From the NCBI GenBank assembly GCA_963731265.1, contig CAVSUE010000001.1, positions 704,001 to 768,000 on the forward strand: a stretch of 64,000 bases of DNA. Reading direction: 5' to 3'. The notes under the pieces are model-generated. The model saw only the letters and a program-made list of their open reading frames with translations, had not been told where the DNA came from and did no database searches. Shown here in pieces: positions 31,323 to 47,950 of this stretch (its first letter is position 1; every line of letters begins with the position of its first letter). The DNA comes from an uncultured Verrucomicrobiae bacterium. GTDB taxonomy: Bacteria; Chlamydiota; Chlamydiia; Chlamydiales; Rhabdochlamydiaceae. The position numbers were made by a program, and so were the translations under genes.

Positions 31323-31374
31323 AATGTGGGGCAACCTGGACTTGAACCAGGGACCAGCGGGTTATGAGTCCGCT
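31323..31374 (-). repeat. tRNA 3'-half duplicate (att site)
   Basis: AATGTGGGGCAAccTGGACTTGAACCaGgGACCAGCGGGTTATGAGTCCGCT versus 47873-47924; differences confined to compensatory T-stem pairs. Confidence 0.92.
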
Positions 31375-31599
31375 TCCTTATGTAACTCTGAACAGACTAG
31401 AGTTAACCAGAACCGCATTTTCCTCTCAAGAAAATCACGACCGCGTTCAGGTCGATTCCTGAAAATTCCTTTAATTTCCAGTCATTTGCGTAAAAAATGC
31501 GGAAAAATTTCATGGCAAGAAGCTCTCTCTCTGTTTCAGAGTTAAGCAATAAAGTTGACAAAAAAAATACACAGGCACATCCTTTGAAATTTAAAGATT

Positions 31600-32358
31600 A
31601 TGTTAGGAGACTATGTGCTTAGACTAGTGCTGGTTGTGCTGTTGTTGGGGCTGGGATCACTCTGTTTTTCTTCAGATGGCCGACATAATCTCAAAGAATG
31701 GCAGTCTGAAAGTCTAAATCATCTTGGTTATGGGTACGACAATCTCTTGGCGCATGATCCATGCGGTGCATTGGAAGAATTTCAAAAAGCTAACTCTCTA
31801 TTGGATCGTTCTGATAATTCTGCATCTGTAATCAGTTTTTTGATCTCTTTTGGACAATCGATTGCCTACGATGCTTTGGGATTCTCGGAACATTGCACAC
31901 AAGCGGTTGGATCCATGTTTTTTGCTATGAATAGTTATGATGAAGATGTGTCAGAGGTTGAGTTGGAGACGGATGGCTTGCCTGAATATGATTCATCGAT
32001 TGGGTTTTTACGCGACTTAATTACAATTGCACCTTCCTATGAAGCTCAAGAACTCTTAACTTCTCTTGTGGACGAAATTGAGGAACAGTTGCTTCCAGAT
32101 TTCAAATTTGCGAAACAGCCTGTTTTAGGAAGTGCAGATTATATTTTTGATTGTAAAACAAATGATTTTACTTCTTTTCAGTGTAAATCATTTTGGAAAA
32201 AATTTACAAAATGGGCTAATAGAGTGCTTGAATTTCTTCATCTTGCAGAAAAGGCAAGTGATCATGCAAAGAATATTAAAAAGAATATCGATGAAATAAG
32301 AAATTCGAATCAATATCAAGACCCTCATTATGTAAATCCCAACATGAGAGTACGCTAA
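31600..32358 (+). CDS. Hypothetical exported protein
   Basis: 252 aa ORF with signal-like N-terminus; stop overlaps the next start (TAATG). Confidence 0.65.
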   Translation: MLGDYVLRLVLVVLLLGLGSLCFSSDGRHNLKEWQSESLNHLGYGYDNLLAHDPCGALEEFQKANSLLDRSDNSASVISFLISFGQSIAYDALGFSEHCTQAVGSMFFAMNSYDEDVSEVELETDGLPEYDSSIGFLRDLITIAPSYEAQELLTSLVDEIEEQLLPDFKFAKQPVLGSADYIFDCKTNDFTSFQCKSFWKKFTKWANRVLEFLHLAEKASDHAKNIKKNIDEIRNSNQYQDPHYVNPNMRVR

Positions 32359-33110
32359 TGTATATTATGAAAAGTGCTTTAACAATTCTTCTATTAGCTC
32401 CGTTCATAGTTAGTGCAAATTGCTTTGGTGGCTCAAATTCATCTGTTAACAGCAAATACCCCAATCATTTCTACATAGGACCTGAAGCTTTTGCGTTTGA
32501 TTTGCACACTCATGTCAAAGATATCAAAATTCACGGTGTGCGGTATTTTGTAGGGCCGACGCTGAGGTACGAATACCTCAAGCCTAAAGCTCTTTATGCA
32601 GGGGTGGATTTTCTCGCATCATGGGGAAATAAGACATTCAAACGCACGTCGCAAAAATATGAATTTCATGGCAATGGAAGGGTTGGATTTGGCAACCTAG
32701 AGCTACGCTTAGGATATACTTTCGAACAAAAAGAGGGTTTGGTATCGCCTTATTTGGGTATAGGATTTTATGGGTTTGGTAGCAGTGGTGCGAATGAAAC
32801 GCTCGCATATGTTACTGCTGGGATGCGTTCCTTGTTTGATCTGAATGAATCATTCAGTATGGGGCTGAATCTCAAACTGTTGTTCGCTCCAAGTGCTGAA
32901 CGAAAATTCAAATATCACTATGAAGGTCATAAGAAAAGACTTCATGAATATGAGAATATGTGGGGAGGAGAAATAGGAGTTCCTCTAGTTTGGTATTTCA
33001 GTGCGTCTAAGCGTTGGCAAGTTCAATTGGAACCCTATTTTCTCAAGCTCGACTTTACAGAGACTCAAAATATCTACGGAGCCCGCCTCCTTTTGGGATA
33101 TCGTTTCTAG
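32358..33110 (+). CDS. Outer membrane beta-barrel protein
   Basis: Signal peptide; YEYLKPKALYAGVD, ELRLGYTF, WQVQLEPY, C-terminal LGYRF; homologous to 13541..14179. Confidence 0.72.
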   Translation: MYIMKSALTILLLAPFIVSANCFGGSNSSVNSKYPNHFYIGPEAFAFDLHTHVKDIKIHGVRYFVGPTLRYEYLKPKALYAGVDFLASWGNKTFKRTSQKYEFHGNGRVGFGNLELRLGYTFEQKEGLVSPYLGIGFYGFGSSGANETLAYVTAGMRSLFDLNESFSMGLNLKLLFAPSAERKFKYHYEGHKKRLHEYENMWGGEIGVPLVWYFSASKRWQVQLEPYFLKLDFTETQNIYGARLLLGYRF

Positions 33111-46456: not shown

Positions 46457-47553
46457 GAGGTTCCTCCTGGTGGGCCGATCAGATTATTACTGGTTTTTTG
46501 CAGAACGCGTGCGATATGTTCCTTGCTGAAATGGGCGTATCTTCTCGTCATCGCCGACGAACGGTGTCCCAAGATTTCCATAAGTTCGCCCTGGGTAGCT
46601 CCATTCATCGCGAGGTGGCTGGCGCAGGTATGCCGCAGATCGTGGTATTTGAAGTTCTGAATTCCAGCTAATTGGAGTGCATTCTGAAAAGCTTTTCTAA
46701 TCATGGAAGGCGGATGGCGCTTCGCCGGATCTTTAGAAGGGAACAGGAATTCATCCGGAAGTTTCGGACACTGCAAATCTTTGAGGTGGGCTGCGACTTG
46801 GCCAGGTAGCGGAACGACGCGAATATCGCCGTTTTTCGTCTGTTCGAGAGTTGCAAACCCGTTATCAAAATCGATGTGCTTCCAGCGGAGGCCGGCGATT
46901 TCTCCAAATCGCAGCCCCATCGAGGCGGCGATGAGGACCATGCCGTAAAGATGGGGATTCTTGCTTTCTTTGCAGTGGCCGAGGAGCGCATACAACTCTT
47001 CCTTGCTCAAGAAACGGTTCCGGCCGCCATTTTCTTTGAGTTTCGATACTCTGCGGAAAGGATTTTCGCTGATCCATTGCCACTCTTGAAAGGCGATAGT
47101 GAAGGCCCTGCTGAGGCTGGAGAAATATCGATTGACTGTGGAATTCGTGCGGTTTGTATTGCGGGGGGTTGTTCCGTTGAGCAGAAGCTCCTTTGCTTCC
47201 GCGAGCAGGGAAGGAGAAATCTCGATCAGGGGTTTATGCCCGTATTGGTCTCGCCACCATTTCAGGTGCGAGGATTGATCTTTGAGGCGGCAGGGGAACT
47301 TGCTGAGATGGAGGCGGGTGTATTGGTCGATCAGATCGGAGAGGGTATACTTGCGCGCCTTGTTGTCGGGCATGTATTTTCCCTCGAGGATTGAGCTTTC
47401 CTGTTTTCGAACCCAGTTCTTGGCGTCCGTCAAAGTCCTGAACGACTCGCGAAGGGGTTTAGCGTTTTTACGGCGCACTTCAGCGTGGAATGTGATAGAT
47501 CCATCTTTTTTCTTATACTTGCGAATACATCTGATATTGTCTGAGCTTTTCAT
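46453..47553 (-). CDS. Tyrosine recombinase / site-specific integrase
   Basis: GLRFGEI, TKNG, HDLRHT, LGH, MTRRYAH: complete R-K-H-R-H-Y set. Confidence 0.96.
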   Translation of the reverse strand: MKSSDNIRCIRKYKKKDGSITFHAEVRRKNAKPLRESFRTLTDAKNWVRKQESSILEGKYMPDNKARKYTLSDLIDQYTRLHLSKFPCRLKDQSSHLKWWRDQYGHKPLIEISPSLLAEAKELLLNGTTPRNTNRTNSTVNRYFSSLSRAFTIAFQEWQWISENPFRRVSKLKENGGRNRFLSKEELYALLGHCKESKNPHLYGMVLIAASMGLRFGEIAGLRWKHIDFDNGFATLEQTKNGDIRVVPLPGQVAAHLKDLQCPKLPDEFLFPSKDPAKRHPPSMIRKAFQNALQLAGIQNFKYHDLRHTCASHLAMNGATQGELMEILGHRSSAMTRRYAHFSKEHIARVLQKTSNNLIGPPGGTS

Positions 47554-47876
47554 AATCTTCTGGAACTCAAATTTGAATTTTAAAACATTAGGGAATTATT
47601 GGGATACAGGATAGACAATCCGTTGCTCCCGATGGTTCTCGTCATTGCTAATCAGTGCTCTTTGATCTTGCGGGATTCGAATTTACGCAATTTTTCCGCA
47701 TTTGAGGAAAAAGTTGACGTAGTTTCGGGGGCTGAATTGATGGGTATGTCTGAAAAGCGAATGATTCTGGTCGGTTCCAGTGATTTGCGTAAAAAGTGCG
47801 GAAAATCCGCTTTTTTGGAAAGTTTGACATGTGACCTCTGATTTAAAGTTCTTTGTTTCAGAGTCACTTAAGAATG

Positions 47877-47950
47877 TGGGGCAAGCAGGACTTGAACCTG
47901 CGACCAGCGGGTTATGAGTCCGCTGCTCTAACCAACTGAGCTATTGCCCC
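47877..47950 (-). tRNA. tRNA with CAT anticodon (likely Ile2; elongator Met not excluded)
   Basis: GGGGCAA-TA-GCTC..GAGC-A-GCGGA-CTCATAA-CCCGC-TGGTC-GCAGG-TTCAAGT-CCTGC-TTGCCCC-A cloverleaf; paired 1:72, so not initiator; CCA not encoded. Confidence 0.95.

Follow-up and report, generated by a model that had tools for sequence, protein, structure and literature searches.

The usual picture of obligate intracellular bacteria is one of lost biosynthetic pathways and little exchange of DNA. The biotin operon BOOM, found in Wolbachia, Rickettsia and Cardinium, is a vitamin operon that has moved laterally among obligate intracellular bacteria. For thiamine, a thi operon of the THI5 type was reportedly described in Legionella (Lpg1565) by Paxhia and Downs in 2019. 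Here, we analysed a stretch of 64,000 nucleotides (the window; positions 704,001 to 768,000 of contig CAVSUE010000001.1, assembly GCA_963731265.1) from an uncultured bacterium of the Rhabdochlamydiaceae, in which a thiamine biosynthesis operon stands beside integrase and replication genes at 31323-47950. We consider it likely, at a probability of about 0.8, that this segment is a 16.55-kb integrative island, one of a family that targets the 3′ half of tRNA-Met(CAT) in environmental chlamydiae and close relatives of the Planctomycetes-Verrucomicrobia-Chlamydiae (PVC) group. As the anatomy of its ends suggests, the integrase would recombine attP with the tRNA gene inside a 23-nt identical segment of the anticodon arm; the tRNA would receive a working 3′ half from the island, and the old half would be left behind as attL. 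The backbone would consist of the integrase, a translationally coupled 446-aa protein, an Xis-like protein, a superfamily 3 (SF3) helicase with a primase, and a two-gene cassette that we call hgg, a gene set that points to excision and a replicating circular form. Everything between the hgg cassette and attL would be variable cargo, here the thi operon and two further open reading frames (ORFs), and the operon would combine a THI5-type pyrimidine branch, a ThiO/ThiS/ThiF/ThiG thiazole branch and ThiD/ThiE coupling under riboswitch control.

The right-hand limit of the segment coincides with an intact tRNA-Met(CAT) gene on the minus strand (47876-47950; ARAGORN and Rfam, Rfam start 47876/7, 72.7 bits), the sole tRNA that ARAGORN found in the window, whose 3′ 49-52 nt constitute attR. 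The left-hand limit, attL (31323-31374), is a displaced tRNA 3′ half with the acceptor 3′ strand, T arm, variable loop and anticodon arm, and repeat comparison showed that it is identical to attR (47873-47924) at 48 of 52 nt, with 16.55 kb bracketed between the two. An exact 23-nt core, which spans the anticodon arm and variable loop, has two copies in the window where 100 shuffles gave an expectation of 0.00, and a search of the window with this core found no att-like remnant between 31.4 and 47.8 kb. The four mismatches are confined to the T stem, where they form two compensatory pairs and the pairing is kept (CCTGG/CCAGG in the left copy, GCAGG/CCTGC in the tRNA), and either version can be folded as a tRNA 3′ half. 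Related loci were collected by one scan for the att core in 185,579 species-representative genomes, which returned 90 loci (L001-L090), and both T-stem variants are present there as parts of intact tRNAs (the attL type as CCT|AGG). Given that both are native in near relatives, neither half can be assigned to the host or to the island. Ends of this kind bear the signature of tRNA integration by an element that carries its own copy of the 3′ part of the tRNA.

Both ends also share sequence on the inner side of the att copies. A 31-nt motif is found at 31476-31506 and 47775-47805 (94% identical), and its 22-nt core occurs twice in the window against 0.01 expected; a second shared block lies at 31528-31555 and 47850-47877, and an inverted 15-mer at 47689-47703. 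These motifs, which define an inner arm of attL (31471-31560) and an integrase-proximal arm of attR (47681-47868, delimited by motif search and comparison with relatives), are placed as arm-type integrase sites and represent candidate sites of that type. Segments of the attR arm are conserved in L004, L015, L028, L032, L041, L060, L067, L068 and L070. Moreover, a block comprising attL and its inner arm (31316-31514) has counterparts at the distal ends of the decayed L060 and L032 islands, which ties the left end to this island family. An initial annotation of the stretch had proposed the att repeats and the arm-like motifs inside both ends, and the identities and core counts given above bear out both.

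The backbone genes lie on the minus strand, and all of them are open and full length. The integrase gene (46453-47553) starts 323 nt from the 3′ end of the tRNA, and its product, a tyrosine integrase, matches the whole of Pfam Phage_integrase (PF00589, 1.3e-35), with R215, K240, H304, R307 and Y339 near-invariant among 22 aligned integrases. The start of the 446-aa gene (45116-46456) overlaps the integrase stop by 4 nt, and the same 4-nt overlap is present in L070, L028, L067 and L041. This protein of no known function is predicted to be all-helical; no match was found in Pfam, NCBIfam, PHROGs or PADLOC, and its AlphaFold2 model (predicted local distance difference test score, pLDDT, 82) gave no fold match in the PDB (best E 0.5). 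Its family comprises only 38 relatives in 5.8 billion clusters, every named one of which comes from a PVC or chlamydial metagenome-assembled genome (MAG). Kinship with the 360-500-aa proteins that follow other integrase subfamilies was considered and rejected (hhalign probability 0.2%). Next comes the gene for a 71-aa candidate Xis/AlpA-like protein (xis71, 44727-44942), so named from its size, position and conservation (56-85% identity in L070, L028, L015, L041 and L067).

The replication module consists of an SF3 helicase of the phage/plasmid primase-helicase type (43202-44779; Pfam DUF5906 5.2e-26, PHROG 1156 2.8e-47) and a Zn-ribbon primase of the DnaG/T7 type (42049-43071; Pfam Zn_Ribbon_Prim 1.3e-8, PHROG 47 ‘DNA primase’ 2.7e-21). 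At E≤1e-10 the helicase matched 247 phage records and 10 plasmids, in which its relatives are annotated as primase-helicase; the plasmids include small ones (6.5-10 kb), and 10 of 10 were typed as non-mobilisable. It also resembles the C-terminal region of P4 alpha, at a score below the cut-off (TIGR01613, 43.5 bits against 108.7). Between the primase and the hgg cassette lies a gene for a Schlafen-AlbA_2/HATPase_c_4 protein (40534-41991; Pfam 7.8e-17 and 1.2e-20). It is missing in L070, where the hgg207 homologue follows the primase after 116 nt, and the Schlafen-type gene thus appears to be a second, smaller insertion relative to L070.

The order of genes from the integrase to the thi operon, as initially annotated, was recovered with Pfam, NCBIfam and Rfam, and so was the reported lack of capsid, tail and conjugation genes, with no such family found by Pfam or PHROGs among the 18 island ORFs scanned. 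Other parts of that annotation stood less well. The statement that the genes run in one direction holds for the backbone and thi genes and fails for two plus-strand ORFs (31600-32358 and 32358-33110); the xis-like gene is indeed a small conserved ORF, while its label found no Pfam match at E≤1 (AlpA and HTH_17 included) and only chance matches when a 10-sequence profile was run against PDB sequences; and the supposed iterons reduce to a weak tandem repeat, 2.6 copies of a 9-bp unit, where the helicase gene ends (43180-43202; Tandem Repeats Finder score 39). A promoter and terminator scan gave counts at chance level.

The last two backbone genes form the hgg cassette. The initial annotation had described them as an HGGxSTG pair, and this domain is present in the 83-aa product (hgg83, 39404-39655; NF041373 1.1e-9), a CCCH protein in which C4, C15, C26 and H29 are invariant among nine sequences, and absent from the 207-aa product (hgg207, 39671-40294). 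The family of the hgg207 protein is large and uncharacterised (2160 representatives at E≤1e-3), and the hgg207 gene adjoins an hgg83 homologue in eight of the eight loci that have it. No fold match to its AlphaFold2 model (pLDDT 86) was found in the PDB (best E 0.36) or in BFVD (best E 0.018, template modelling score ≤0.28), its profile found nothing among PDB sequences, and tblastn against phages likewise found nothing; none of 67 family members matched PHROGs, and no Pfam family was matched by more than two of the 67. A protein-atlas search with hgg83 returned unnamed clusters only, and literature searches on HGGxSTG found nothing. The pair also exists on alphaproteobacterial plasmids, as an hgg207-like gene with an HGGxSTG gene (L095, Sulfitobacter plasmid NZ_CP083567, 6848-7714; L091, 120-767), and on the Sulfitobacter plasmid it stands among non-phage genes. 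A predicted complex of hgg207 with hgg83 was not counted as evidence: it reached ‘weak support’ (median 0.56, best of three controls 0.00; three runs agreeing in at least 80% of contacts, partner pLDDT at least 63), and in calibration 116 of 157 solved complexes attained this mark, as did 2 of 215 mismatched pairs, with 18 of the 157 solved complexes and both passing mismatches at 0.60 or below.

The HGGxSTG domain does have phage relatives. It matches proteins in five phage records (E 1e-3 to 8e-3), where it sits near the N-terminus of proteins of about 215-250 aa; hgg83 matches PHROG 3678 at 2.4e-7 and gp1 of Bacillus phage vB_BpsS-36 at a pairwise E of 2e-10. The gene for this gp1 comes first, upstream of those for the large terminase and portal, and in phage Flasso the HGGxSTG protein is encoded by the first gene after an annotated pac site. 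The gp1 proteins are unannotated, with no Pfam match at E≤1 and no PDB sequence match. The occurrence of the domain at the small-terminase position is the only lead that would connect the island to packaging, and it is a positional one.

Comparison with the nearest relatives revealed how the island is put together. Relative to L070, the integrase is 90% identical, the 446-aa protein 54%, xis71 85%, the helicase 78%, the primase 68%, hgg207 62% and hgg83 81%; relative to L028, the values are 93% for the integrase, 58% for the 446-aa protein, 82% for xis71, 65% for hgg207 and 79% for hgg83, with a different D5-type helicase there and no primase found. L067, L015 and L041 are more distant members (integrases 66-74%). 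In L023 the integrase is unrelated (40%) and the primase-helicase is another one, yet hgg207 and hgg83 are 59% and 79% identical (hgg83 ranging over 78-81% in L070, L028 and L023), which indicates that modules are exchanged between islands. The integrases are thus 90-93% identical between genomes whose core flank proteins share 67-80%, while the adjacent 446-aa protein shares 54-58%, and this ranking argues for mosaic islands that spread horizontally.

At the DNA level, the window can be aligned with L070 and L028 as far as 39414-39425, some 10 nt short of where hgg83 ends on its 3′ side (39404), and past hgg83 each relative carries other genes: an SDF Na/dicarboxylate symporter and carA in L070, a PD-(D/E)XK nuclease and the type I methylase HsdM in L028, and DUF2167, VWA and PP2C genes in L023. 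In L067, DUF499 and DUF3780 genes lie further from the integrase. A tblastn search with all eight thi proteins found no match within 10 kb in any of the 90 loci (E≤1e-5). Since other genes follow the hgg cassette in the relatives and no thi gene is found there, the thi operon appears to occupy the variable cargo slot of the family. The annotated limits, which had included the thi operon, are therefore borne out by the matching att ends together with the different cargo past hgg83 in relatives, and no relative with the thi operon at this position in the absence of integrase or att sites, which would have spoken for a mobile part without it, was seen (thi genes in 0 of 90 loci).

We also screened the related islands with PHROGs, using 125 island-side ORFs from 25 integrase-bearing loci after 24 integrase ORFs had been removed from 149. 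Primase and helicase modules were found in most of them, and the cargo includes restriction-modification and acetyltransferase genes. No capsid, portal or terminase was matched among the 125 ORFs, and the sole virion-type match was a ‘minor tail protein with lysin activity’ in L069. Taken together, these comparisons suggest that the islands form a new chlamydia-associated family of tRNA-Met integrative, probably self-replicating elements. Our literature search, which left most subscription journals outside, found no description of the island family, nor of a chlamydial thi operon on a satellite or island, and the terms ‘thiamine’, ‘vitamin’, ‘integrase’ and ‘genomic island’ do not occur in PMC8242063.

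The cargo of the present island is dominated by eight thi genes (33167-39089, minus strand), which are open reading frames with full-length domains. A thiamine pyrophosphate (TPP) riboswitch (39116-39209, minus strand; Rfam RF00059, 76.2 bits against a gathering score of 54.3, full model length) lies 27 nt upstream of the first gene, and a promoter-like site, of a kind found at chance frequency here, lies just upstream of the riboswitch (39243-39215). The first gene encodes a hydroxymethylpyrimidine phosphate (HMP-P) synthase of the THI5/NMT1 type (38151-39089; Pfam NMT1 2.4e-67), which matches the yeast THI5 structure 4h65 at 4e-89 and conserves the GLKAMIHTLA and CCCFC motifs, in which K62 and H66 presumably have the roles reported for the THI5 structure. 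It is followed by thiD (37375-38163; Phos_pyr_kin 1.2e-89), a gene for a glycine-oxidase-type enzyme dependent on flavin adenine dinucleotide, named thiO from its operon context (36339-37484; DAO 1.9e-60), thiS (36115-36321; ThiS 9.7e-14), thiG (35325-36134; ThiG 3.1e-103), a second TMP-TENI gene that is tenI-like or a thiE paralogue (34747-35340; TMP-TENI 2.3e-49), thiE for thiamine-phosphate synthase (34146-34892; TMP-TENI 4.6e-54, residues 44-225), the listed start of which is probably too far upstream, and a thiF-rhodanese fusion (33167-34162; ThiF 3.2e-61, Rhodanese 5.9e-9), all by Pfam. The set of the THI5-variant pathway is thereby present, with HMP-P synthase, ThiD, ThiO/ThiS/ThiF/ThiG, ThiE and the TPP riboswitch. 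Neither thiL nor dxs was found in the 64-kb window. That the island confers vitamin B1 prototrophy is plausible but incomplete as read from these genes, with thiL and dxs to be supplied from outside the window.

Between the operon and attL lie two plus-strand ORFs of 252 aa (31600-32358; GC content at third codon positions, GC3, 0.30; hydrophobic N-terminus) and 250 aa (32358-33110; GC3 0.37), which are not paralogues of each other. Both products are exported-looking. No match to either was found in Pfam, NCBIfam, PHROGs or PADLOC, and the protein-atlas scores of the 252-aa ORF were all below 0.9.

We considered Legionella as the donor of the operon. All 14 THI5 matches that carry an organism name are Legionellales (68-71% identity). 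The closest relatives share 97% (on a 29,826-bp contig), then 87%, 83% and 81%, followed by many at 66-72%. In a FastTree tree of 121 THI5 sequences, the clade of the window sequence falls in a starred 26-row group without names, apart from all 14 named Legionellales. Relatives of the ThiF-rhodanese protein above 50% are few (75, 70, 59, 59 and 55%), with no Legionella among its best 120 matches and Bacteroidota at about 40% as the named ones. A Legionella donor was rejected because THI5 is not nested in the named Legionellales and the ThiF-rhodanese protein has no Legionella affinity, and the thi operon is, on this phylogenetic evidence, not a recent Legionella import. Four contigs (400,277, 2,096,346, 27,270 and 84,301 bp) occur in both the THI5 and the ThiF-rhodanese match lists, which indicates that operons with both genes exist in a few other genomes. 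Composition was also tried as a sign of foreign origin; it is not distinctive for the thi genes and gave no sign of recent import.

We further studied the use of the tRNA site across genomes. By record label, the 90 loci comprise 65 from Chlamydiota, 7 from Verrucomicrobiota, 5 from Spirochaetota, 2 each from Acidobacteriota and Bacteroidota, and 9 without a label. Among the 59 usable loci, in which the tRNA is intact and followed by 2 kb or more on the 3′ side, a tyrosine integrase lies within 1.5 kb of the tRNA and reads away from it in 24 (23 by script rule plus L016, whose integrase ORF as called overruns the tRNA). The other 35 have no tyrosine integrase beside the tRNA, including the near relatives L077, L024 and L061, none of them from the same species; L077 has island-like genes such as RhuM at the site. 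A second or third, partly incomplete core copy is present at 14 loci, with three copies in L032 and L057. The 5′ side of the tRNA bears genes common to many loci, including those for a DUF1207 protein (50916-52178; 2.5e-73) and a 706-aa protein, and the 3′ side is different in every genome. To judge from these occupancies, this tRNA-Met gene is a major integration hotspot across environmental chlamydiae. In the near relative L075, the same tRNA has a large serine recombinase (9986-11476; Recombinase and Zn_ribbon_recom), indicating that the hotspot is used by a second recombinase class.

Some further observations were made on this set. Across the chlamydial loci, the T stem varies at three base pairs, for which at least six variants were counted, each fully compensatory (CCT/AGG, CTT/AAG, GCT/AGC, GCA/TGC, GTA/TAC and GTT/AAC), in a search whose pattern fixed the anticodon arm and T loop. 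L067, an island at an intact tRNA, and L053 lie 440 kb apart on one Simkaniaceae MAG contig (1,010,417 bp); L053 has a second integrase beside a partial core copy without the tRNA 5′ half, which suggests a secondary site or a rearranged island.

The nearest relatives by flank proteins are L069, L077, L024, L060, L028, L023 and L070 (67-82% identity). Five of them (L028, L069, L070, L023 and L024) carry conflicting phylum labels (Acidobacteria, Verrucomicrobia, Chlamydiae) despite a common tRNA, synteny and islands, and some of these labels are probably artefacts of binning or naming. The 90%-identity protein clusters of the window bear Simkaniaceae and Rhabdochlamydiaceae names. Together with the predominance of Chlamydiota among the loci that share the core and the conserved DUF1207 neighbour, these names support a chlamydia-like host, as had been proposed, which in view of the mixed labels we place no more finely than chlamydia-like/PVC.

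Directly outside attL, we identified the remains of a second element. A third, decayed copy of the att core (28401-28419) matches the tRNA core exactly over 19 nt, extends by alignment to about 22 nt of attR type, and marks the outer end of the remnant. It is followed by a gene for a 459-aa APH/choline-kinase-like kinase (28746-30125, minus strand), with weak NCBIfam matches that are both far below cut-off (GntI 1.2e-23, thiamine kinase 7.4e-13) and an AT-rich composition (GC3 0.28 against 0.36-0.62 in flanking genes), and by a 113-aa fragment resembling the AbiEi antitoxin (30284-30625, plus strand; PADLOC AbiEi 3e-11, profile positions 117-190 of 216). Next to attL itself lies a truncated and frameshifted N-terminal part of a second tyrosine integrase (30739-31239, minus strand; blastx, two frames), which comprises the first ~190 residues of a protein of another subfamily, without the catalytic half (45% identical to the L034 integrase over residues 6-158 of the latter, and 42% to the 394-aa L023 integrase over its residues 9-193). 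The att remnant and the truncated integrase indicate that the present island integrated beside the remains of an earlier one (28.4-31.3 kb).

Further to the left, three ORF fragments come from an IS630-like transposase (HTH_32, DDE_3; 14960-15927). After them stands an isolated copy of the integrase-proximal arm motif (15975-16029; 91% over 35 nt) with no att core adjoining, and the accreted region may once have reached left to 14960-16029. The photolyase gene at 23535-24905 falls in a cluster (90% identity) whose 185 members are spread over many contigs, and an 85%-identical photolyase fragment lies inside the decayed tRNA-Met island of L060 (L060 15773-15939); this gene, too, may travel as cargo of islands. 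At 18078-23188, two neighbouring paralogues of about 847 aa each have kelch/mutarotase-like repeats, with YjhT-family NCBIfam matches far below cut-off.

Several observations weigh against an integrative island with these limits. The left-flank genes stand beside the tRNA in no relative among the 90 loci, and the left flank is syntenic with none of those examined, so that the left limit is defined by att and arm homology. No same-species genome with an empty site was found, and the one close strain seen (the 29,826-bp contig, with photolyase, 446-aa, Schlafen and THI5 genes at 97%) seems to be arranged in the same way. The 10 kb retrieved for L070 and L028 stop short of the distal ends of their islands, and their cargo is presumed to be inside the islands. 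The codon usage and GC3 (0.41-0.51) of the thi genes fall within the range of flanking genes (0.36-0.62). Moreover, the contigs with THI5 relatives at 81-87% (783,099 and 400,277 bp) are absent among those of the 446-aa family, which indicates that thi genes may exist elsewhere than on this island in related bacteria, and the operon may be a resident chlamydial one that the island took up, not a foreign one that came with it.

Some of these points would also fit a fixed remnant that is no longer mobile and is kept by the host for its thi operon. The close strain with the same arrangement, the host-like composition of the thi genes, the 4 differences in 52 att positions and the frequency of decay at the site (the older remnant here, L060 and L032) all agree with such an end state. 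Against this, the backbone genes are open and full length, the catalytic residues of the integrase are kept, the 23-nt crossover core is identical at both ends and the arm motifs are retained at 94%; moreover, four att differences are what would be expected from integration out of another host lineage, not from decay. We therefore give this alternative some weight and consider it improbable, and we prefer an island that has kept its means of moving.

A different question is whether such an island moves as a true phage satellite. The closest described satellites are phage-inducible chromosomal islands (PICIs), P4-like satellites and PICMIs (minimalist islands of the phage-inducible chromosomal kind), and on this reading a helper phage of chlamydiae would induce excision and replication of the island and package it, with the HGGxSTG protein perhaps acting as a small-terminase-like specificity factor. 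The order of integrase, small Xis/AlpA-like gene and primase/helicase without structural genes is that of satellites, the helicase is of phage type (247 phage records), phage gp1 proteins with the HGGxSTG domain are encoded at the small-terminase position, and the related islands carry restriction-modification cargo, as satellites often do. PICMIs, as described in PMC10803314, have three core proteins and no terS, sid or ppi, so that missing packaging genes do not exclude a satellite. On the other side, the island ORFs matched no family of TerS, Psu, Sid, Delta, Ppi, Cpm, capsid, portal or large-terminase proteins in Pfam or PHROGs, and the 125 ORFs of 25 related islands matched none either, apart from the single L069 match; no repressor is encoded divergently from the integrase; the gp1 proteins carry no annotation of their own; and no phage relatives of hgg207 were found by PHROGs (0 of 67), tblastn or BFVD fold, while on the Sulfitobacter plasmid the hgg pair has non-phage neighbours. 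To our knowledge, only small Microviridae have been described for chlamydiae, and these are too small to package 16.5 kb, which we count against a satellite; a literature search on tailed phages of chlamydiae found nothing relevant.

The string ‘Chlamydi’ is absent from the main text of a satellite census, and its authors set aside int-AlpA-primase ‘Type C’ triplets, which may be mobile elements of another sort (de Sousa et al. 2023, PMC10085698). The element had initially been called phage-satellite-like and dependent on a helper. Neither description is supported as worded, given that the layout is not diagnostic by the same source, no hijacking or packaging homologue and no divergent repressor were found in the island, and no helper is known. 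A satellite is thus neither excluded nor supported beyond the layout, and we regard it as unlikely. Its boldest form would make these islands the first phage-satellite family of Chlamydiae and PVC bacteria, induced, self-replicated and packaged by an undiscovered tailed phage, with the hgg cassette as a small-terminase-like module and one member spreading B1 prototrophy; this is a long shot. If it were true, B1 prototrophy would spread among intracellular bacteria that share a host cell.

Movement by conjugation, as an integrative mobilisable element served by chlamydial F-type transfer systems or plasmids, seems quite unlikely as well. Conjugative tra islands were reportedly described in Parachlamydiaceae by Greub and colleagues in 2004, which we count in its favour. 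The helicase matches primase-helicases of small plasmids, suggestive of plasmid-like replication, and the hgg pair occurs on plasmids. Yet no relaxase, coupling-protein or type IV secretion system (T4SS) family was found in the island ORFs by Pfam, NCBIfam or PHROGs, nor among the 125 related-island ORFs with PHROGs, which as a phage library is a weak test, and all 10 plasmids with a related helicase are non-mobilisable.

The least credible alternative is a fusion, in which the backbone alone (~39.4-47.9 kb) would be mobile, the thi operon and distal ORFs would derive from an earlier island or old chromosome, the repeat at 31.3 kb would be the end of the older unit and an inner att site would have been lost: tandem arrays at the site (the third att remnant and truncated integrase, and three core copies in L032 and L057), host-like thi composition and the possible occurrence of THI5 relatives at 81-87% outside such islands speak for it, but no att-like remnant lies between 31.4 and 47.8 kb, homology ends about 10 nt inside the 3′ end of hgg83 with different genes beyond in three islands, as for a cargo slot, the arm motif inside attL is that of this integrase subfamily, and even a fused unit, bounded by matching att sites, could move whole.

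An integrative island of the tRNA-Met family therefore remains our preferred reading, and as such it would be one way for an intracellular bacterium to gain a vitamin pathway in a single step. A bounded, apparently intact element with a complete riboswitch-regulated thi pathway in a chlamydia-like genome runs counter to the picture of pathway loss and little DNA exchange. The islands, which appear to swap integrases, replication modules and cargo (restriction-modification, metabolic), would offer a concrete vehicle for chlamydial gene flow. Their att/Int system is testable and could serve as a genetic tool. The comparison also brings out two conserved modules of no known function, the 446-aa protein and the hgg207/HGGxSTG pair, the latter widespread on plasmids and islands.

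Compared with known systems, the island resembles PICI, P4-like and PICMI satellites in its tyrosine integrase, in the order of integrase, small AlpA/Xis-like gene and primase-helicase, in fixed-slot cargo, in the lack of virion genes, in the defence-type cargo of its relatives and in its size (16.5 kb with cargo). It differs from them in that no Psu, Sid, Delta, epsilon, TerS, Ppi, Cpm or Stl-type repressor was found, xis71 is not recognised as AlpA, and the 446-aa protein and hgg pair are unrelated to satellite core genes. We know of no tailed phages described for the host phylum. Like a PICI, the island has an integrase and a primase/helicase; the packaging or hijacking module and divergent repressor of a PICI were not found among its 18 ORFs. 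Of a P4-like satellite, Psu, Delta, Sid and epsilon were not found, and only the helicase resembles P4 alpha, in its C-terminal region and below cut-off. PICMIs, according to PMC10803314, lie beside fis in Vibrionaceae and have a virulent helper, whereas the present island lies in a tRNA gene of other hosts. From integrative and conjugative or mobilisable elements it differs by the lack of relaxase, coupling-protein and T4SS families in its ORFs.

The island also resembles the ‘metabolic’ or ‘fitness’ tRNA islands with a P4-type integrase, which share the reconstituted 3′-half tRNA target, direct repeats, arm sites, tandem accretion and variable cargo; unlike these, the present island has its own helicase-primase and the two conserved modules of no known function. 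Where source names exist, its family has been seen only in chlamydia-like and PVC MAGs. As for the cargo, the operon shares with that of Legionella an HMP-P synthase of the yeast THI5 type in place of ThiC; the THI5 clade of the window stands apart from the named Legionellales, and the island operon is thus not a simple Legionella copy. Finally, as in BOOM, a complete vitamin pathway forms one transferable block in intracellular bacteria; unlike in BOOM, the vitamin here is thiamine, and the vehicle is visible as an att-bounded island with an integrase and a replication module.

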